A stretch of 64,000 bases of DNA, from the NCBI GenBank assembly GCA_019057865.1, contig JAHLWP010000018.1, forward strand, positions 9,052 through 73,051, read 5' to 3'. This document shows, one piece after another, positions 5,364 through 59,700 of this stretch (the stretch's first letter is position 1; the number at the start of each line of letters is the position of its first letter). This DNA comes from Promethearchaeota archaeon. Its GTDB lineage: Archaea; Asgardarchaeota; Lokiarchaeia; Sigyniarchaeales; SOKP01. The position numbers were made by a program, and so were the translations under genes. Below the pieces are notes generated by a model, which saw nothing but the letters and a program-made list of their open reading frames with translations, did not search any database and was not told the origin of the DNA.

Positions 5364-6242
5364 CTATTTCTTATAAAAAGATGCTATTATCTTGTTTGTA
5401 TCACTTTCAACCTTATATTTTTTTTGAAAGTAATTACATACATTTCTAATATCTCTTTCCAAAATTGAAGTTGCATTTGGATGATCACTAGGAATCCACT
5501 GCAACCAATCTATTATTAGGATATTTCCTTTCTCATCTAACACAATATTAAATTCTCCTAAATCTCCATGAATTATATTAGCTTTTTGATAAATTATTTC
5601 CATTTGTTTTATGATTCTATTAAAAATTTTATCAGGATTTTTAATACTTTTATAATAAACTAACTCTTTACCCCTTAAATATGACATTACCACAATGTGT
5701 CTATTATATCCTATTGGTTTGGGAGTATTTAAATTAAGCTTATATATCCTTTTTAAAACTTCAAATTCTTTTTTAGCAGCAAGTCTATTTATATATAACC
5801 AAGAAAGATGGCTTCTTTCACCCGTTAGATCTCTGGAACGCTTAATACTTTTAAAACTCGTTCTTCCCATTCGATAAATTTTTAATGCATATATATTTTC
5901 ATTATCATCCATACAACTGTATACGTCTGATTCTTTTCCTTTCCCTATAAGGGGTCCTAACTGACTAACAATATTCTTTTCTACTAATGTATGTAGAGCT
6001 AATAAATCATAGGCTATTGAATTGAGTGTATATCCTATTTCATTTTTTGAGGAATCTCTAATAATTAAATCAAGTTTATGAATTTTGTTCAAGCGAAATA
6101 GCGTTTCTTCCATTTTATATCTTGAATAAAATTTAATATTGTTGATTTTTACATATTCAGATCTTTTCATCCCAATTTCAATTGCCATTAATATTCTTAG
6201 GTCCTCTTTTTCAAGGTCAGGGAGAAGTTTTGCTGCTTCCAC
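5364..6242 (-). CDS. rio2: RIO2-family atypical protein kinase
   Basis: N-terminal wHTH, GKGKESDVY, HGDLGEFNI, IIDWLQ. Confidence 0.92.
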   Translation of the reverse strand: MEAAKLLPDLEKEDLRILMAIEIGMKRSEYVKINNIKFYSRYKMEETLFRLNKIHKLDLIIRDSSKNEIGYTLNSIAYDLLALHTLVEKNIVSQLGPLIGKGKESDVYSCMDDNENIYALKIYRMGRTSFKSIKRSRDLTGERSHLSWLYINRLAAKKEFEVLKRIYKLNLNTPKPIGYNRHIVVMSYLRGKELVYYKSIKNPDKIFNRIIKQMEIIYQKANIIHGDLGEFNIVLDEKGNILIIDWLQWIPSDHPNATSILERDIRNVCNYFQKKYKVESDTNKIIASFYKK

Positions 6243-6372
6243 ATACTAAATTTCTTTTTTTTAACTTAAAAGATTTATTAATTTACAATAATAAATTGCT
6301 TATCTTCTATATTTTGTAATGATAATATGATTTTTTATATAAAACTATAAAAAAAAATTATTGATTTTAATA

Positions 6373-7275
6373 TTATTCTTGGCTTTCAATTCTTTTCTTT
6401 ATTTCTTGCCACATATCATCGATATAAGTTTTATACATTTCAATCTCTTGTTCATTTAGATTTTTAAATCTTTTCTGTGCACTTAGATATTCTTCTATAG
6501 GTTTTCTTTTAGAAGGATCTAGATACTTACTACTTGGTTTTGATAAGATAAATTTGTCATTAACTACTTCATATAAAGGCCAGAATCCAGTCTGCACGGC
6601 AAGTCTACCAATCAATATTGTATCCTTGGGTTCATAACCCCAACCAGGTGGGCAAGGTGAAAGGATATGGAAATATTTCGTTCCAAATATATCTCTTGCC
6701 TTTTTGAATTTTTCAAATAAATCAAGTGGATAAGAGGCAATACCCGTAGTCACATAAGGAATTCTATGAGCTTCTAAAATCTTTGGCATATCTTTTTTAT
6801 GCCCTAATTTACCTTCAGGTGTAGTTGTAGTTCTTACTCCTAATGGAGTTGAACCACTTCGTTGAACACCTGTATTCATATAAGCTTCATTATCATAACA
6901 TGCAAAGATAAAATTTGTACCTCTTTCAGCAGCACCACTTAATGCTTGTATTCCTATATCGGTTGTCCCACCATCGCCTGCGAATGCTAGTACACATATT
7001 TCTTCATCCAATCCCTTATCTTCTAGTGAAGCTCTTATTCCAGAGGCAGAGGCTCCTGTTGTTGCAAAGGGTGTGTGATAAACGGATATTTTTGTTGAAC
7101 AAAACCCTTGCATCCCATGTAGCACTGTTAGGCAAGAGGCGGGTACTGTTACTATAGTTTTTGAACCTAGTGCTTTTAGAGCGATTCTGTAAATTAGAGC
7201 CATGCCACATCCCGCACAAGCACGTGTACCAGGATAAATATATTCTTCTTCAGGAAGATCCATAACATTTACCAT
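6373..7275 (-). CDS. porB: Pyruvate/2-oxoacid:ferredoxin oxidoreductase beta subunit (TPP-binding)
   Basis: ACAGCG, GDGGTTDIG...DNEAYMNTGVQRS, SPCPPGW; substrate specificity not determinable. Confidence 0.9.
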   Translation of the reverse strand: MVNVMDLPEEEYIYPGTRACAGCGMALIYRIALKALGSKTIVTVPASCLTVLHGMQGFCSTKISVYHTPFATTGASASGIRASLEDKGLDEEICVLAFAGDGGTTDIGIQALSGAAERGTNFIFACYDNEAYMNTGVQRSGSTPLGVRTTTTPEGKLGHKKDMPKILEAHRIPYVTTGIASYPLDLFEKFKKARDIFGTKYFHILSPCPPGWGYEPKDTILIGRLAVQTGFWPLYEVVNDKFILSKPSSKYLDPSKRKPIEEYLSAQKRFKNLNEQEIEMYKTYIDDMWQEIKKRIESQE

Positions 7276-7281
7276 TTTTCC

Positions 7282-8574
7282 TCACCCTCCTTTGAAATAA
7301 GTTGATTCATCATAATCTTTTAATTCTTCTAATTTTAAACCTAAAAAGTCTGTTTTATTGGTAAATATTCCTTTTTTAAATGCATCTAAAGCTTTATGAA
7401 CACCTGACATAATATGTTCTGTTTTAACGTCTCTTCCTCCCAATCCAACAATAAATCCTTTAATATTTGGTCGATTTTTTAATCCATAAAGCGCAGCTTT
7501 TAATTCATAAGATAAAACTCCTTCATAACCATATCCAATATCTCTGTCAAATACAATGATATTTTCTTTATCTTTAAAAAATTCTCTCAAATCTTCCGCA
7601 GGATAAGGTCTAAACAATTTTAAACTCATTAAGCCAACTTTAAGTCCTTCATTTCTAAGTTTTTTAATTGCAATCCTAGCTTGAGATGCCACCGAACCCA
7701 TAGCAAAGATTATGGTATTTGCATCATTAGTATCAACAGTTTTATAAATTCCATTTCCATAAGATCTCCCAAATTTCTTGGAAAATTCATCATGAACTTC
7801 TTTTATTATAATAATTGAATTTTCTAAAGCTTTTTGTAATGCATATCGATATTCATAATATCCTGGCACAGTTCCTTCTGCTCGTTTAACAATATGAGGA
7901 GTTGTAACAGGATCAACTCCCTTTACATTTGAAATATCAGATAAATTGATATGATGTTTAAGAGGTGGTAAGAAATTATCAATATCTTCTTGATTCTCTA
8001 ATTTAACAGGCATCATTGTATGACTAAGTATATATCCATCATATGCAACCATGGCGGGTAGAAAAAGACGAGGATCCTCAGCGATTTTAAAAGCTTGGAG
8101 ATTAGTATCATAGATTTCTTGGTTGTTTTCACACATAAATTGAATCCATCCAACATCTCTTATAGTTATGAAATCTTGATGATCCGTCCAAACACTCCAA
8201 GGAGCGCCTAAGGATCTAGTTGCTAGATTTATAATTATAGGTAATCTATTTCCTGAAGCCCAGGGTAGCAATTCATACATTAATTCTAACCCGTGAGCAG
8301 AGGTTGCTGTGCCAACTCTAGAGCCTGTAGCCGAAGCAGCACAACATACGGCAAGTGCGGAGTGTTCAGACTCAACTTTTATAAATCTAGCTTTCAATTT
8401 TCCTTCTGAAATAAATTCAGCTATTTTTTCAACCACAGGACTTTGAGGTGTTATTGGATATGCTGAGATAACACCTACTTTAGCTTGTCTAAAAGCATGA
8501 GCTGCGGCATGATTTCCTGTTAAAATCATTACATTTTCATCAGTAACCTTTTCTTTCTCATTAGACACAGTCAC
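7282..8574 (-). CDS. porA: Pyruvate/2-oxoacid:ferredoxin oxidoreductase alpha subunit
   Basis: AYPITPQS, VESEHSA, TATSAHGL, GLGGRD. Confidence 0.9.
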   Translation of the reverse strand: MTVSNEKEKVTDENVMILTGNHAAAHAFRQAKVGVISAYPITPQSPVVEKIAEFISEGKLKARFIKVESEHSALAVCCAASATGSRVGTATSAHGLELMYELLPWASGNRLPIIINLATRSLGAPWSVWTDHQDFITIRDVGWIQFMCENNQEIYDTNLQAFKIAEDPRLFLPAMVAYDGYILSHTMMPVKLENQEDIDNFLPPLKHHINLSDISNVKGVDPVTTPHIVKRAEGTVPGYYEYRYALQKALENSIIIIKEVHDEFSKKFGRSYGNGIYKTVDTNDANTIIFAMGSVASQARIAIKKLRNEGLKVGLMSLKLFRPYPAEDLREFFKDKENIIVFDRDIGYGYEGVLSYELKAALYGLKNRPNIKGFIVGLGGRDVKTEHIMSGVHKALDAFKKGIFTNKTDFLGLKLEELKDYDESTYFKGG

Positions 8575-49772: not shown

Positions 49773-52700
49773 ATGGTAGAGAGTAATAATTCTGAAAAAC
49801 AAGTATTGGTAATAGGGGGTGGTGTAGCTGGGATTTCTGCTGCCCTAGACCTAGCAGATCAAGGTCATCTTGTCTATTTAGTTGAAAAAAGCCCCTCAAT
49901 TGGAGGGAAAATGGCTCAATTGGATAAAACTTTTCCGACTTTGGATTGTTCAATATGTATTTTAGCACCTAAAATGGTCGAATGTGCTCGTCACCCTCGA
50001 ATTGAACTTTTAACTTATTCAGAAGTGAAAAGAGTTGACCGAATTCGTAATGGATCTACCTTCAAGGTAAGAATTCTACTTAAACCTAGATATATTGATA
50101 GTTCAAAATGCACTTCATGTGGAACATGTGCGCAAAAATGCCCCTATAAAAATTTTCCCTCTGAATTTGAACAAGGGTTAAGTAAAAGAGGTGCTGCGTA
50201 TATTCCTTTCCTTCAAGCAGTTCCAGCTGTATATCTTATTGATTCAGAAAATTGTACTTACTTTAAAAATGGTACATGCAAGGTATGTGAAAAATTTTGT
50301 CCGGCCCACGCAGTAGATTTTGAACAAAAACCAAAAGAAATAGAAATTGAAGTCGCTTCCATTATAGTAGCCACTGGTTTTGATCTAATGGATGTTAGTT
50401 CCTTAGAGAGGTACGGATATGGAAAATATTCCAATGTAACTGTATCCTTGGAATATGAAAGAATTATGTGTGCATCAGGTCCAACTAAAGGCGAAATTTT
50501 ACGCCCTTCCGATAATAAACACCCCCACAAGATAGGATTTATTCTATGTGTTGGATCGAGAAATGTTAATTTAAAGCCTTATTGTTCTAAAATTTGTTGT
50601 ATGTATGCTACAAAAGAAGCAATTATGACGATGGAACACCATTCTGATGCAGAAATTTTGGTTTTTTATAATGATTTACGCACGATTGGAAAGAATCATA
50701 ATGAATTTATTGATAGAGCTAAATCAGATTATAAGGTTCAATATGTCAGAGGTTTACCTAATAAGATTTATGAAAATACAGAAACAAAAGATCTTATAAT
50801 AAGACATAAAGACTTTGACACAGGTGAAATTAAATTTGATACAGTAGATATGGTTGTTTTATTTCCAGCAGTTATACCTAGCAGAGGAGCAGAGGAATTT
50901 AATGATATATTAGGGGTCGAAATGGACGAATATGGTTTTATAAAGCCAGTATCATCAACAAATAATATTGAAACTAATATTCCTGGAATTTATGTATGTG
51001 GATGTGTTCATGGTCCAGAAGATATTTCAACCTCTGTTGCTGAGGCTAGCGGTGCTGCTAGTAAAGCAGCTTCTAGAACTTCAATAACTACTATAGATGA
51101 AATAAAAGAAGATATTGTTGAAAGAAAAGTATCTAAAAGCGATCCTCCTCGAATCGGTGTTTTTATCTGTCATTGTGGTTCTAATATTGCAGGCTTTGTG
51201 GATGTTAAAAAGGTAGCGGAAGAAATTAAAACTGTTCCTGATGTAGCTTATGTTGAAAGAAATTTATATACTTGTTCGGAAGAATCTCAGAATAGTATAA
51301 AGGCGGCAATTGAAAAATATGATTTAAATAGGGTTGTAATTGCTGCGTGTACTCCTAGAACCCATCTTCCATTATTTCAGGGCACTTGTCATGAAGTAGG
51401 TCTTAATCCATATTTAGTCCTATTTGCAAGTATTAGAGAATTAGTGAGTTGGGTTCACATGTCAGAACCTGAAAAAGCTACACAAAAAGCAAAGGAACAG
51501 ATTTTAATGTGTATCGCAAAATCTCGGCTTGTAGAACCATTACACGATATTGAAGTTAATGTATTACCTGCTTCATTAGTTATTGGAGGGGGAATTGCAG
51601 GCATGACTGCAGCATTGGCTATGGCAAAAAAAGGATTTAAAGTATACATCGTAGAGCGGAGTGAAAATCTTGGTGGATTCATTCGGAACTTAAATGAAAT
51701 TAATACTGAGGGAACCTCTTCAGAACAAGTACTAACTCCAATATTGCAAGCAATAAAGACAAATCCTAATATAGAAGTTTTCATATCCTCAACAATAAAA
51801 GCTGTAAATGGTTCAATTGGCAACTTTCTAATAGTTATTGAACAAAACAGTGAAGAAAAAGAAATTAAAACTGGCACTATTATTGTTGCTGTGGGAGGAA
51901 AAGAATTTAAACCAAATGGATATTACCATTATGAAGAATATGAAAATATCTTTACAAATTTAGAACTTGAAGGTTTAATTCGAAATGAGCAATTACAAGA
52001 TGGTGAATCTATTGCTTTTATTCAATGCGTTGGTTCCCGTGAAGAACAAGGAAGAACTTATTGTTCATTGACTTGTTGTGAAGAATCTATAAAAAATGCT
52101 TTAACTGTCAAGAAGCGGTATCCTAATTCTCAGATTTTCATATTTTATCGAGACATAAGAGTATCTTATAAAGAAGAGATTGAATATAGAAAAGCAAGAG
52201 AAAAAGGCATTAATTTTATACAATATAAACCGGAAAATCCCCCAATGTTGAAAAATAAGGATGACAAATTAATATTAAATGTGTCTGATGCTTTAACAAG
52301 AATGAAATTCGAATTATCTTTAGATAAAGTAGTGCTTGCTACTCCTTTAATAGCATGGGAAGAAAATAAAAAGCTATCTGAAATGTTAAAAGTCCCCCTT
52401 GATAAAAACGGTTTCTTTTTTGAAGCACATCCTAAATTAAGACCTGTTGATTTTGCTACGGATGGAATCTTCACATGTGGAACTGCTCAATGTCCTAAAA
52501 ATATAAAAGAATCTTTAAGTCAAGCTCTGGGCGCGGCATCTAGAGCTTTAATCCCCTTAATGAATAGTAAAGCATCGGTCGAGGGTGCTACATCAAGTTT
52601 ACCTGAATTTAATAAAAAATTATGTACAGGCTGTGAAGTCTGTCTAACTGTATGTCCTTATAATGCCATCTCTAAGAACGAATTAGATGAGATTGAAATA

Positions 52701-52844
52701 AATCAAGTTCTTTGTAAAGGCTGTGGAGTATGTGGGGCTACGTGTACTAATCAAGCTCTTGTAATAAAACATTTCACAAATGAGCAAATTATTTCTCAAA
52801 TCAATTCTTGTAAAGAAGAAAAACTGGTTGAACTAAAGTTATAA
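49773..52844 (+). CDS. hdrA: Large two-module HdrA (A+B fusion)
   Basis: DKTFPTLDCSIC, two FAD motifs, EAHPKLRP, C-terminal ferredoxin. Confidence 0.9.
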   Translation: MVESNNSEKQVLVIGGGVAGISAALDLADQGHLVYLVEKSPSIGGKMAQLDKTFPTLDCSICILAPKMVECARHPRIELLTYSEVKRVDRIRNGSTFKVRILLKPRYIDSSKCTSCGTCAQKCPYKNFPSEFEQGLSKRGAAYIPFLQAVPAVYLIDSENCTYFKNGTCKVCEKFCPAHAVDFEQKPKEIEIEVASIIVATGFDLMDVSSLERYGYGKYSNVTVSLEYERIMCASGPTKGEILRPSDNKHPHKIGFILCVGSRNVNLKPYCSKICCMYATKEAIMTMEHHSDAEILVFYNDLRTIGKNHNEFIDRAKSDYKVQYVRGLPNKIYENTETKDLIIRHKDFDTGEIKFDTVDMVVLFPAVIPSRGAEEFNDILGVEMDEYGFIKPVSSTNNIETNIPGIYVCGCVHGPEDISTSVAEASGAASKAASRTSITTIDEIKEDIVERKVSKSDPPRIGVFICHCGSNIAGFVDVKKVAEEIKTVPDVAYVERNLYTCSEESQNSIKAAIEKYDLNRVVIAACTPRTHLPLFQGTCHEVGLNPYLVLFASIRELVSWVHMSEPEKATQKAKEQILMCIAKSRLVEPLHDIEVNVLPASLVIGGGIAGMTAALAMAKKGFKVYIVERSENLGGFIRNLNEINTEGTSSEQVLTPILQAIKTNPNIEVFISSTIKAVNGSIGNFLIVIEQNSEEKEIKTGTIIVAVGGKEFKPNGYYHYEEYENIFTNLELEGLIRNEQLQDGESIAFIQCVGSREEQGRTYCSLTCCEESIKNALTVKKRYPNSQIFIFYRDIRVSYKEEIEYRKAREKGINFIQYKPENPPMLKNKDDKLILNVSDALTRMKFELSLDKVVLATPLIAWEENKKLSEMLKVPLDKNGFFFEAHPKLRPVDFATDGIFTCGTAQCPKNIKESLSQALGAASRALIPLMNSKASVEGATSSLPEFNKKLCTGCEVCLTVCPYNAISKNELDEIEINQVLCKGCGVCGATCTNQALVIKHFTNEQIISQINSCKEEKLVELKL

Positions 52845-53079
52845 GTTCTGGTAAGAGGAGATTTTACCTATATAAGTAGACATTAAAGGAAGGAAATAAG
52901 TAAAATTACTTTTAAAAAATTTTTATATCCTTTTATTTTGTGTTTGTTATTTGAAAAAAATCAATAATGAATCTAATTCAATAGATAGAGTCAATAATAC
53001 CTTCAAATATTCTTTTTCTCCATACTTGTTTTTAAAATAGACATCTAATACACCAGTAATCGTAAAAAAGACTCCAAGT

Positions 53080-53259
53080 CTAATTAATCTTGAAGAATTA
53101 GAAATCTCAGTCCATAATATACAAAGATTGCCGTTGTTCATAAAAAATCTTAAAAACCTTAAAATCTTGAGAGTTTACTCTTCAGAGAATCTGAAGAATA
53201 AAGAAAGACCAAAATGGTTAAAGGAGATGCCTAACTTAGTAAAAATTCAATTTTATTAA
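53080..53259 (+). pseudogene. Start-less 3' fragment of a leucine-rich-repeat gene
   Basis: Translates LINLEELEISVHNIQRLPLFIKNLKNLKILRV...MPNLVKIQFY*; upstream in-frame TAG at 53038. Confidence 0.6.
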
Positions 53260-53307
53260 CCATTAACAAGACTGAAATTATTTTAAAAGTTATAATGATA
53301 CAAGTAT

Positions 53308-53404
53308 AAAAAGAAAAGAAAAATAAAAAACTTGTTTAAAAAAATGGATTTTTGAATTGTACTTAGGAGATTGCCCTGTTAGAAACATCGGTGGATTACC
53401 TGCG
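53308..53404 (-). repeat. Actin 3'-end remnant 1: codons QVIHRCF* plus ~70 nt of actin 3'UTR/poly-T terminator
   Basis: 53379-53404 matches 54868-54893 with 3 synonymous changes; 53308-53378 aligns with 54796-54867. Confidence 0.9.
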
Positions 53405-53416
53405 TAATCCTCTAAA

Positions 53417-53518
53417 CTTAATACATCAGTAAAGAAATCAGAAATGCTAGCTAAAATTATAAGCTTTGGGAAAAGAAAATTTGAGAGATACAATAAAGCA
53501 TTAAAAAAAAGGAAATAG
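53417..53518 (+). pseudogene. 3'-end remnant of the FrhB-like gene (39084..40193)
   Basis: LNTSVKKSEMLAKIISFGKRKFERYNKALKKRK* vs LNTSVKKSEMLAKVISFGKRKFQRYKEALKER* (27/32 identical); followed by a T-rich terminator-like tract. Confidence 0.92.
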
Positions 53519-53972
53519 GTAAAATTATTTATTTTTTTATTTCTTCTTTTATTTCGTAAGATTCTGCTAGATGTGGTATTAATAATAAACAACAAGCTAA
53601 AAATAACTATAAATCTTTAATGCTTCTCGTCTAGCCGATCCCTTCAGGTAAGTCTGACTCTGATGTGCGAAATTATATCGATTTCATGGCAATGGATTAT
53701 TACTTCTCCCAATATCCAAGATTAGTAGTTTTCTTTTTTTGGATTATATTTTATTTATTTTTAAGAATTGGCTTTTTTTACGATTTCTTTGTTGTTTAAT
53801 TTTATTAATAGATTTTATTGATTTGAGAAAAAGCATTCGAATTTCGGCTTTTTTGACATGGTAAAGACGATATTTATCATCAATTTTTTGACTCATTTAA
53901 GAAAAAATAATCATGAGAAAAAAGAATAAAAAAATAAATGAAAAAATAAAAAACTTGAAGAGGTTTACCTCT

Positions 53973-54040
53973 TTAGAAACATCGGTGTATTACTTGTGGA
54001 CCCATTTCTTTGTATTCTCGCCTCGTGACCCACATACGAT
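53973..54040 (-). pseudogene. Actin 3'-end remnant 2 ([21 protein letters not shown])
   Basis: 21/21 aa identical to the actin C-terminus; 12 substitutions in 66 nt, all at third codon positions. Confidence 0.95.
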
Positions 54041-54041
54041 A

Positions 54042-54061
54042 TAATACAATCTAATACAATC
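54042..54061 (+). repeat. Tandem 10-mer TAATACAATC x2 at the remnant-2 junction
   Basis: Seen directly, starting 2 nt after actin homology ends. Confidence 0.75.
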
Positions 54062-54258
54062 TGAAATATGAGATAGAATTTATTGTTTTTTGTTGATATC
54101 TATTGAATTTTAACATAAATTGAATTAATGAGATAATAATTTTCATTCAATTCTATTTTTATTCAAGATTTTAAGAATAAAAAAGGAAAATAAAAAAAAT
54201 TAAATAAAGAGATAAAAGTAGAATCTAAAAATATATTAATTTATGGTTTTTTCATTAT

Positions 54259-54600
54259 TTATTTTGCAATATATTCGTCTGGATCGCCACCATCTTCGAG
54301 ATGTTCAATGAAATTTTTCAATCCATTTAAAATAGTTGTAAGAGAACGCTTTTTTATTTTTTCATGCTTTAAAATTTTATAATCAACCCAATACGATAAT
54401 TCTGTCATGTCGCCTTTCTCTTTTAATATATAGCCATATCCATTAAAATCAGGGTGGTTTACTTTCAATGAAAGACTTTCATTTTCTATTCGATCTGTAA
54501 TAGTGATATTCAATTTAGAAGCGAGAGTTATGTTTTCTAAAACCTCCCAAATTTTTTTTGGAGGAGCTCTAATTTCGATATTTGATTCAAACTTAGGCAT
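54259..54600 (-). CDS. SRPBCC/polyketide-cyclase (START-like) family protein, short and possibly internally deleted
   Basis: N-terminal IEIRAPPKKIWEVL and C-terminal helix LNGLKNFIE; only 113 aa. Confidence 0.65.
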   Translation of the reverse strand: MPKFESNIEIRAPPKKIWEVLENITLASKLNITITDRIENESLSLKVNHPDFNGYGYILKEKGDMTELSYWVDYKILKHEKIKKRSLTTILNGLKNFIEHLEDGGDPDEYIAK

Positions 54601-54795
54601 AAAATCACTTCATAAATTTTTGAACTATCTTAAGTCATTTTGATTTTTATACTTTTGCTCCAAATTTAAAAATTCATATAAAAATAGCTTTAAAAATGAT
54701 GCCTATAAGGAGCTTGGAAAGAAAATCTATCTCTTTACTTATAGTAATTTTTATTGTTCAGATACTAAAATTAAGAATTAAGATTTGAAGTCTTG

Positions 54796-54820
54796 AAAAA
54801 AAGAAAAGAAAAATAAAAAA
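54796..54820 (-). terminator. Poly-T terminator-like tract downstream of actin
   Basis: T-rich tract on the minus strand ~50-70 nt after the stop; retained in the remnant copy at 53308-53330. Confidence 0.55.
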
Positions 54821-54867
54821 CGGGTTAAAAAAATGGATTTTTGATTTACGTTGAGGAGATTTCCCCA

Positions 54868-56013
54868 TTAGAAGCATCGGTGAATTACTTGCGGTCCCAT
54901 CTCCTTATATTCGCGTCTGGTTACCCACATGCGATGGAAAGTTTTAAGTGACGAAAGAATGCTTCCACCAATCCAAACAGAATACATACGCTCTGGAGGT
55001 GCGATTATTTTGACGTCAACACTCTCAGGGATTTGTTCTTTGATTTCCTTAGTTAAACGCTCCTTAATCCCTGGGAACATAGTACTTCCACCAGAGAGAA
55101 CGATGTTGCTGTAAAGATCCCTTCTTAGGTCGACATCGCACTCGGAAATGGAGCCTACGATCACATCATCTAAAGGTTCGAGTTCTTTTCCGATTACACT
55201 TGGATTGAAGAGACACTCGGGTCCGAGAAAACGTTCCACGCCAACCATTATGGTCTCTCCATCAGGGAGCATGTAGCTTTTCTCCATTCCGGCGACCTTC
55301 TTACTCAACATCATTTCCTTTTCGGGATCTATCGCGACATAGCATAATTTCTCCTTGATATCTCTCACAATCTCCTTTTCGGCAGATGTCGTGAAAGAGT
55401 ATCCTTTCTGTCTAAGTAATCTTTGTAAATAATTGGTAATATCTCGACCAGCTAGATCAATTCTTTGGATAGCATGGCTTAAAGCAAAACCCTCGAAAAT
55501 TGGCACAACGTGGGAGACCCCATCACCAATATCTATAACGCATCCTGTGGTACGACCTGAAGCGTAGAGGGATAATACTGCTTGCATGGCTACATAAAGT
55601 GCTGGAGTGTTGAAAGTTTCAAACATAATTTCTGCCATTTTTTCCCGATTTGGTCTGGGATTTAAGGGGGCTTCGGTCAAAAGTATAGGGTGTTCACTAG
55701 GATCAATCCTGAGGTCTGTATAAAAGGTGTAATGCCAAATTTTTTCCATGGCTGTCCAGTCTTCTATAATACCATGCTCAACTGGAAACATTAATTTGAG
55801 GACACCTTTAAGTTGCATTGCTTCTTCTCCGATGTAATATTCCCTAGTATAATGTTCAACGTCTGTCATTATAGATTCATACTTTGGATAACCTATGAGG
55901 GTTGGAAAAACTGATCGAGGTTGATCTTCTCCGGCGAAGCCATTTTTTGAAATACCAGTACCATTATCAACCACAAGTGCCTTAGCGCTTAAAAAGCTTT
56001 CTTCTTCTGCCAT
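54868..56013 (-). CDS. Lokiactin (eukaryote-like actin)
   Basis: [78 protein letters not shown], terminal HRCF. Confidence 0.98.
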
Positions 56014-59145: not shown

Positions 59146-59679
59146 ATGCTTGAAGGTAAGAATGTGAATTTGAGGATTCGTGAGAAGGAGGACTTACCAC
59201 TGATTGCAGAATGGGTTAATAATCCTGAGTTCTGGGGTGAATTTTTTTCACCTCTACAGAGGTCCAGAACAAAGATGGAAAAGGCACAGGATAATAATCC
59301 TTTTGAATCAGAGATGTTTCTTATAGAGAAAAAAGATGGAAGCAAAATTGGTTTTACATTTCACTTTTGCATGCTGCATCCTATGGGTAAGTTATTGGAA
59401 ATGGGTTTTGCTTTAATTCCAAGTGAAAGGAGAAAAGGCTACTGCACTGAAGCTGCCAAGATTATGGTGGACTATTTGTTTCTTTCAAAAGAAATAGTCT
59501 GTATCCAAGCCCTTACTGATGTTGGGAATATAGCTTCTCAGAAGGTTTTAGAAAATGCCGGTTTTAAAAAGGAAGGAGTGATTCGTAAACGTTTTTTCAC
59601 AAGAGGAGAATGGAGAGATATCTGGTTTCATAGTATTCTCAGAGAAGAATGGAAAGAACCAAAAATTTTAAAAAATTAA
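59146..59679 (+). CDS. RimJ/RimL-type GNAT N-acetyltransferase
   Basis: RRKGYCTEA, NIASQKVLENAGFKKEG. Confidence 0.9.
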   Translation: MLEGKNVNLRIREKEDLPLIAEWVNNPEFWGEFFSPLQRSRTKMEKAQDNNPFESEMFLIEKKDGSKIGFTFHFCMLHPMGKLLEMGFALIPSERRKGYCTEAAKIMVDYLFLSKEIVCIQALTDVGNIASQKVLENAGFKKEGVIRKRFFTRGEWRDIWFHSILREEWKEPKILKN

Positions 59680-59700
59680 TTAATAGAAAATTATTATTTA

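Follow-up and report, generated by a model that had tools for sequence, protein, structure and literature searches.

Displaced 3' end behind the live actin gene in an Asgard archaeon of the Lokiarchaeia type: probably a dead recombination scar

Displacement orphans, that is, former 3' ends of genes that survive beyond a new one, are already well described. The e14 prophage, and likewise phage 21, integrates in E. coli at the 3' terminus of icd and leaves a displaced icd C-terminal pseudogene. The actin locus of the Asgard archaeon described here is similar to e14/icd in that the insert supplies a substitute 3' end with mainly silent differences, the essential gene stays intact and the old end is found beyond the insert. 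It is different in that e14 has its own integrase and a defined att core, whereas no recombinase was found here. Arrays of displaced 3' ends are also known from Rhs, CDI and T6SS effector loci, where they have been attributed to homology-facilitated illegitimate recombination (HFIR; Kirchberger et al. 2017, PMC5361080); for HFIR itself that paper refers to de Vries & Wackernagel 2002, Prudhomme et al. 2002 and Meier & Wackernagel 2003. There as here a conserved 5' part serves as anchor, the incoming DNA carries a new 3' end plus cargo and the old end is orphaned downstream, and there as here repeated events lead to a series of orphans (in our case remnants 2 and 1) with no integrase. Different from our locus however, the 3' ends of these effector genes encode different toxins, their cargo consists of immunity genes and displacement alters the phenotype. 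In the Asgard locus the gene is an archaeal housekeeping gene of the cytoskeleton, the 21 residues encoded by the new and the displaced tail do not differ, a small gene of no relation to actin forms the cargo and the orphan is without evident selective value. What is added here is thus an Asgard actin case, for which the documentation within one species is unusually good.

The host is a Lokiarchaeia-type Asgard MAG from a genus with many sequenced species, the closest of which (G012) has an actin gene that is 92% identical at the nucleotide level. In the window, by which we mean the whole 64,000-nucleotide stretch of DNA that was analysed, the region around the actin gene is composed as follows:

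53308..53404, minus strand: remnant 1, a probably older displaced actin tail of 7 codons plus stop, with flank A'.
53406..53605, plus strand: orphan 3' end of an FrhB-like gene, 36 codons plus flank, abutting remnant 1 and 96% identical to the FrhB-like tail of G012.
53606..53728, no strand: spacer of 123 nt between the flank of the FrhB-like tail and flank B; in G012 its place is taken by a 1-kb segment containing a 268-aa ORF.
53729..53972, minus strand: flank B, the own 3' flank of remnant 2 with the stop hairpin and the terminator-like AAGTTTTTTATTTT, 86.5% identical to the sequence after the actin stop of G012.
53973..54040, minus strand: remnant 2, a displaced actin tail consisting of orphan actin codons 361-381 plus stop.
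54041..54195, minus strand: distal end of the insert, 155 nt, unmatched where relatives have their native SRPBCC gene.
54196..54700, minus strand: relocated single-gene cassette, made up of a promoter region and a 113-aa ORF (54259..54600), a shortened SRPBCC / polyketide-cyclase-like gene.
54701..54795, minus strand: insert segment of 95 nt between flank A and the cassette, unmatched in the relatives searched.
54796..54867, minus strand: flank A, the 3' flank of the live actin gene, of a type that differs from flank B; found in G007, G005, G015 and G016 and at remnant 1.
54868..56013, minus strand: live actin gene, 381 aa (Pfam Actin, E = 1.6e-133).

Remnant 2 reads CGT ATG TGG ... TTC TAA and lies downstream of the live gene in the same orientation, 827 nt past the live stop, which agrees with the distance of about 830 bp given in the earlier note. 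Its 21 residues are those of the live actin end. The 12 nucleotide differences between the two tails, which we recounted, are without exception third-position (12/12) and synonymous (12/12), just as had been claimed; the chance that 12 random substitutions in 63 nt are all synonymous is 5.3e-11, and that all of them fall on third positions is 1.1e-7. The in-frame ATG pointed out before opens a 20-aa ORF inside the remnant (53973..54035, minus strand), and the same frame contains a TAG 5 codons before the Arg codon with which the remnant begins. The hairpin AAGAGG/CCTCTT is likewise present directly 3' of the stop and is predicted to fold. A search of the 87-contig assembly revealed no further copy of the actin tail beyond the live gene and remnants 1 and 2, and the three other actin-like genes of the assembly are distant paralogues.

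Since the host is a sediment MAG with co-existing strain haplotypes and an estimated contamination of 5%, strain variants of the actin 3' end might have been stitched together in series during assembly or binning. However, a Logan contig of 3104 nt, assembled per run and found in 2 samples, is 100% identical to window 52284-55387 and thereby extends from the live tail through the insert and both remnants into the next gene. The orphan junction is also contained in NCBI GCA_019057575.1, JGI 3300032107 and ENA ERZ27251131 (of the strain contigs discussed below, L117 and L118 come from NCBI and JGI, and L125 is the ENA contig). A mis-join, the objection which the earlier note had itself raised against the orphan, is excluded by the Logan contig together with these three assemblies. 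Moreover, the junctions lie outside shared repeats, and the three tail copies align with one another at only 82-85%, which makes confusion during assembly unlikely. We therefore regard the probability of an artefact as negligible. The sequence is present in 20 listed DNA runs from 11 studies, with no RNA run among those listed.

Comparison with the sister species defines the insert. In G012 the actin stop runs straight into a flank of the orphan type (L013 7032-6726 against window 54040-53729, 85.6% identity), and flank A is absent after the G012 actin gene. Because the G012 actin gene adjoins flank B directly, window 54041-54867 is an insert. Relative to G012, flank B is 86.5% and the orphan coding part 83% identical, as compared to 96% for the neighbouring intergenic DNA. 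The similar divergence of flank B and the orphan coding part would fit a single contiguous old haplotype block. The cassette within the insert shows 71-79% nucleotide identity to a 143-aa SRPBCC-like gene of G006, G007, G023 and G024, where this gene occupies a conserved slot far from actin. The window copy is about 30 aa shorter (113 vs 143 aa) and fails the cut-off of Pfam PF10604, which the native homologue passes. In the genome under study the native slot (G000 contig C24:11096-11941) is taken by an unrelated, membrane-protein-like ORF of about 200 aa, and single-gene replacement seems to be common in this genome. At the illegitimate junction the distal end of the insert starts with two tandem copies of TAATACAATC (54042-54061 on the plus strand), beside which the joint 54041/54042 offers only 'AT' (about 2 nt) as possible microhomology.

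The live actin gene is itself a mosaic. Its 3' third (gene nt ~795-1146, window ~55219-54868) forms a haplotype block that is distinct from that of conspecific strains and is contiguous with flank A and the cassette. Compared with contigs L117-L124, the gene shows 2-4 differences in nt 1-390 and 7-21 in nt 390-780, and then 48-57 in nt 780-1075 and 8-15 in the tail, all of them synonymous; divergence thus rises from <1% over nt 1-390 to 17-19% over nt 780-1146 in genes that encode an identical protein. Identity to G012 amounts to ~95% over nt 1-780, ~78% over nt 783-1071 and 96% in the final 75 nt. The live tail differs from the G012 tail at 3 positions in 66 nt, as opposed to 21% in the block just upstream. 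Among the strains, at least two haplotypes of the actin 3' part occur. Either may be the derived one, although many positions between nt 795 and 1000 set the window apart from L117, L122 and G012 alike. In the genus as a whole, 81 of 83 alleles have one and the same 21-residue tail, and the corresponding 66-nt tails average 82.7% nucleotide identity. As the tail is invariant at the protein level and ~17% divergent at the nucleotide level, a foreign allele is expected to differ from the resident one only silently.

The variability continues behind the gene. Ten of the 23 contigs that carry an identical actin protein were compared with the window, to which they are 95.5-99% identical upstream of actin. 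Downstream, six layouts are found, three with and three without remnant 2:

L126 (gapped scaffold, differing after window 54179): actin, flank A, cassette, FrhB-like gene, no orphan.
L125: as the window up to an intact FrhB-like gene; remnant 2 present, remnant 1 absent.
Window: its own layout, with both remnants.
L117, L118: actin, third flank, 151-aa ORF, cassette, remnant 2, flank B, intact FrhB-like gene, HdrA.
L119, L120, L121, L124: actin, third flank, 151-aa and 101-aa ORFs, flank A', HdrA, no remnant 2.
L122, L123: five other ORFs and a truncated FrhB-like gene (105-aa fragment), no remnant 2.

The remnant 2 of L117, L118 and L125 is the same as that of the window and has an identical left junction (...GATTGTATTAGATTGTATTAT / ATCG...), except that its first codon is CGC instead of CGT. 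The first 50 nt of the window's remnant 2 match the live tail of L117 at 49 positions, the first 49 nt being identical, and that of L119 at 48 positions, which indicates that the orphan allele is alive in sister strains; the tails of 80 other species reach at most 86% identity to remnant 2. The last 18 nt, in turn, correspond to the tail type of the window and of G012. Remnant 2 is therefore chimeric, with the first 10 discriminating sites of the second haplotype and the last 3 of the window type, and with the switch at about gene nt 1128-1131. The proposal that the orphan derives from another functional actin allele is thus borne out by the match to the L117 and L119 tails and by the near invariance of the tail (81/83). 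Its recent detachment is corroborated as well, in that the block shows a divergence of only 1-1.5% between the window and strains sharing the orphan (L117, L125), with a single base changed in the orphan itself. Tandem duplication of the live tail followed by drift was considered and rejected, given that all 12 differences are synonymous (chance 5e-11) and that the orphan allele is live in other strains.

Searches for the two parents of the present arrangement gave the following picture. Among 54 genus genomes the tail pattern of remnant 2 was found only in the window and, with 2 mismatches, as a live tail in G067, which yields neither a donor nor a resident allele. No strain was found in which the remnant-2 allele is the live tail and is followed by flank B, as presumed for the resident, nor one that combines flank A and the cassette with the 138 nt preceding the orphan, as expected of the donor, to which L126 comes close. 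The end of remnant 2 joined to flank B had 0 exact matches in JGI metagenome contigs, a result which carries no weight as near-identical records may be missing. Presence and absence vary at another place near actin as well, where a stretch of about 520 nt (59162-59685) with a 177-aa acetyltransferase ORF lies between the RNA polymerase Rpb6 gene and a 152-aa ORF; it is present in the window and in L119-L121 and lacking in L117, L118, L125 and L126.

Could the arrangement be the att-site scar of an integrase element which inserted in the manner of e14 and has since decayed to ~0.9 kb? Such an element would produce the same topology of spare 3' end, cargo and displaced 3' end, it could leave remnants 1 and 2 in series, and CACCGATGYTTCTAA, which is common to all tails, might be taken for its core. 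However, when the ORF of the insert and the cargo ORFs of the six haplotypes were scanned with Pfam, domains of integrases, transposases or other mobile-element proteins were not detected. The cargo is a common chromosomal gene whose native locus lies elsewhere, and the shared 'core' is nothing but invariant coding sequence (81/83 alleles). In addition, ~350 nt of the live gene have been replaced, which is far beyond an att arm. The lack of a recombinase in all six layouts together with this ~350-nt tract makes an element of the e14/icd type very unlikely.

Most likely, remnant 2 is a dead recombination scar, namely a former actin 3' end with its own flank. As for the way in which it arose, we favour HFIR by sequential displacement, to which we assign a probability of about 0.6. 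A segment from a related strain, comprising the 3' portion of actin, flank A and the relocated SRPBCC cassette, would have entered the cell and paired at one end with the highly conserved actin gene, the homologous crossover taking place at or before gene nt ~795. The other end would have been joined illegitimately to the resident actin gene at codon 360/361. By this combination of a homologous and an illegitimate join the live gene would keep a complete, in-frame 3' end of foreign origin, and the last 21 resident codons with flank B would have been shifted 0.83 kb downstream. The orphan would then look perfect because it was part of a working allele until recently, and its differences from the live tail would reflect ordinary synonymous variation between alleles rather than decay. 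The enzyme pathway, the direction of the exchange (which of the two tails was the resident one) and the arrival of the actin 3' block and the cassette in one event are what we infer in this reading. It agrees with the mosaic structure of the live gene, the similar divergence of flank B and the orphan coding part from G012, the lack of integrase and transposase domains in the cargo ORFs and the unequal lengths of orphans from different events. Then again, the ~2 nt of AT microhomology at the joint is weak for HFIR, and since the live tail resembles that of G012 but the block just upstream is 21% different, HFIR would need mosaic donors or an extra event. Moreover, the chimeric structure of remnant 2 could mark a crossover inside the tail.

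A crossover at that place is what a Campbell-type integration would involve. A fragment from another strain, containing actin tail, flank A and cassette and circularised by end-joining, would have entered by one reciprocal crossover in the last 20-25 nt of the resident tail, closure of the circle being represented by 54040/54041 with slippage to two copies of TAATACAATC. The orphan coding part would then be the incomer and the live tail the resident. Remnant 2, still a scar, would consist of donor tail as far as the crossover and, beyond it, of the resident end with flank B. The haplotype switch within remnant 2 (from 10/10 to 3/3 sites, at gene nt 1128-1131) and the resemblance of the junction's tandem 10-mer to an end-joining artefact are in support of this notion, as are the direct repeats that bound a unit of only ~0.9 kb, the G012-like live tail and the fact that G012 actually has what the resident is presumed to have had, namely a window-like tail with flank B behind it. 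However, at 86.5% identity to G012, as opposed to 96% for the neighbouring DNA, flank B does not look like that of a G012-type resident, and the block of the live gene that is 17-19% diverged would require a separate, coincident event. The homology available to the crossover is only 66 nt at 82%, and the circular form has not been observed. We consider Campbell-type integration a close rival of HFIR, if a rather unlikely one.

But might the orphan have a function of its own, either by encoding a micropeptide of 20 aa from the actin tail or as an RNA that regulates the actin mRNA or serves as its decoy? Its frame, ATG and stop are intact, a hairpin and T-run terminator follows, and its amino acids are unchanged in four assemblies. 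However, there has been too little time for damage, as at a divergence of 1-1.5% about one change is expected in 68 nt and one is seen, and the perfection of remnant 2 thus needs no selection to account for it. The orphan is, moreover, absent from three of the six haplotypes of its own species, from G012 and from 52 other genus genomes (33-nt tail pattern, up to 2 mismatches), and the orphans of other species have suffered missense changes or truncations. Remnant 2 has no match in Rfam (best E = 0.97), its fold is no better than that of shuffled sequence (z = 0.18), and Pfam scans of the small flanking ORFs gave nothing that would point to a function of the orphan. The role as micropeptide or regulatory RNA which the earlier note had left open thus finds no support, given the patchy occurrence of the orphan, the decay of its counterparts and the Rfam and folding results, and we consider it highly improbable.

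The 3' flanks of the two remnants have a sequence in common, as had been noticed before: AAATAAAAAACTTG occurs exactly at 53321-53334 and at 53944-53957. This does not establish a special link between the remnants, since the sequence belongs to a conserved motif of actin 3' flanks. With at most 1 mismatch, AAGTTTTTTATTTT lies 27-47 nt past the actin stop in 40 of 80 species, as compared to 12 of 1600 control windows, and it is probably the actin transcription terminator. That each orphan has its own copy of the motif supports the view that the orphans are complete former gene ends.

We read remnant 1 as a probable further scar of this process, left either earlier or in parallel. Its 3 differences from the live tail are all synonymous (3/3), and its flank of ~70 nt is 84.5% identical to that of the live gene. 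Flank A' is found in L119, L120, L121 and L124, whose homology to the window starts exactly 1 nt past the remnant 1 stop, and in L125 and L117 the FrhB-like tail on the other side of the joint belongs to a gene of 370 aa that is intact. Contigs L119-L124 have the order HdrA-1023, flank A', cargo and actin, with no intact FrhB-like gene in between. A block reaching from the FrhB-like tail to actin may thus have been attached to a chromosome in which actin faced HdrA via flank A'. The layout of L119-L124, together with the intact FrhB-like gene that L125 has along with the whole block, makes remnant 1 more simply the joint of two pre-existing layouts. An alternative in which a 13-kb HdrA cluster is an insert between repeats of the FrhB-like tail was demoted, as the layouts of L119-L124 and L125 speak otherwise. 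At the joint, where two gene ends stand back to back, a 7-bp fold-back is present (GGATTAC / GTAATCC). On the HdrA side, two clusters in window 28885-52844 (plus strand) together contain five or more HdrA-like paralogues, each of ~1000 aa, along with MvhD/FlpD-like partners; it is the distal cluster that ends at the hypervariable spacer.

Orphan actin tails are not confined to this species. In G022 an intact orphan of 15 codons differs from the genome's own live tail at 6 positions, all synonymous (6/6), and is accompanied by flank A. Decayed orphans are found at L041, L062 and L078, with missense changes, a lost codon or truncation, and several other loci repeat pieces of the actin flank. The occurrence of intact and decayed orphans in several genomes indicates that orphans arise repeatedly and then decay, as neutral scars would. 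Across events the orphans start 0, 26, ~48 and 68 nt before the stop, values which reflect the length of the arm and not a crossover core; this variation and the ~350 nt of live gene replaced in the window may point to general recombination. A 'truncated actin' of 128 codons in G023 (L022 4199-4298) was discarded as a parallel case, as it abuts an N run at a scaffold gap. At L031 a second actin gene (5381-6487, plus strand; 92% amino acid identity over residues 12-380) is located 1.6 kb downstream of the normal one and may be a displaced copy of the whole gene or a young paralogue.

The G022 orphan (L021 ~7221-7326, plus strand) is inverted and lies ~1 kb upstream of that genome's own actin gene. 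Among members of the genus the orientation of actin relative to a neighbouring LRR gene flips, which suggests inversions through tail copies. Live and orphan tails might act as direct repeats, between which small single-gene cassettes could loop out as circles and re-enter the chromosomes of other cells at the near-invariant actin tail, with no need for an integrase. We regard such an exchange as improbable. If it did take place, actin, as the most conserved gene of these archaea, would be a universal landing pad, and both the six haplotypes and the flips in actin orientation would be explained.

Taken together, we regard the orphan as a dated fossil of homologous exchange among strains and species of this Asgard genus, an exchange frequent enough to have turned the 3' third of actin and the region behind it into a patchwork of at least two haplotypes and six layouts within one species. 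The actin 3' end is a recurrent recombination anchor in this genus, and very conserved genes such as actin appear to anchor the capture of accessory genes without the machinery of mobile elements. For annotation this means that intact-looking tails of this kind should not be called micropeptide genes. Phylogenies based on actin call for caution, because the gene is a mosaic at the nucleotide level. Beyond this, the finding is of relevance to how genes move and how plastic genomes are among those prokaryotes that are most closely related to eukaryotes.
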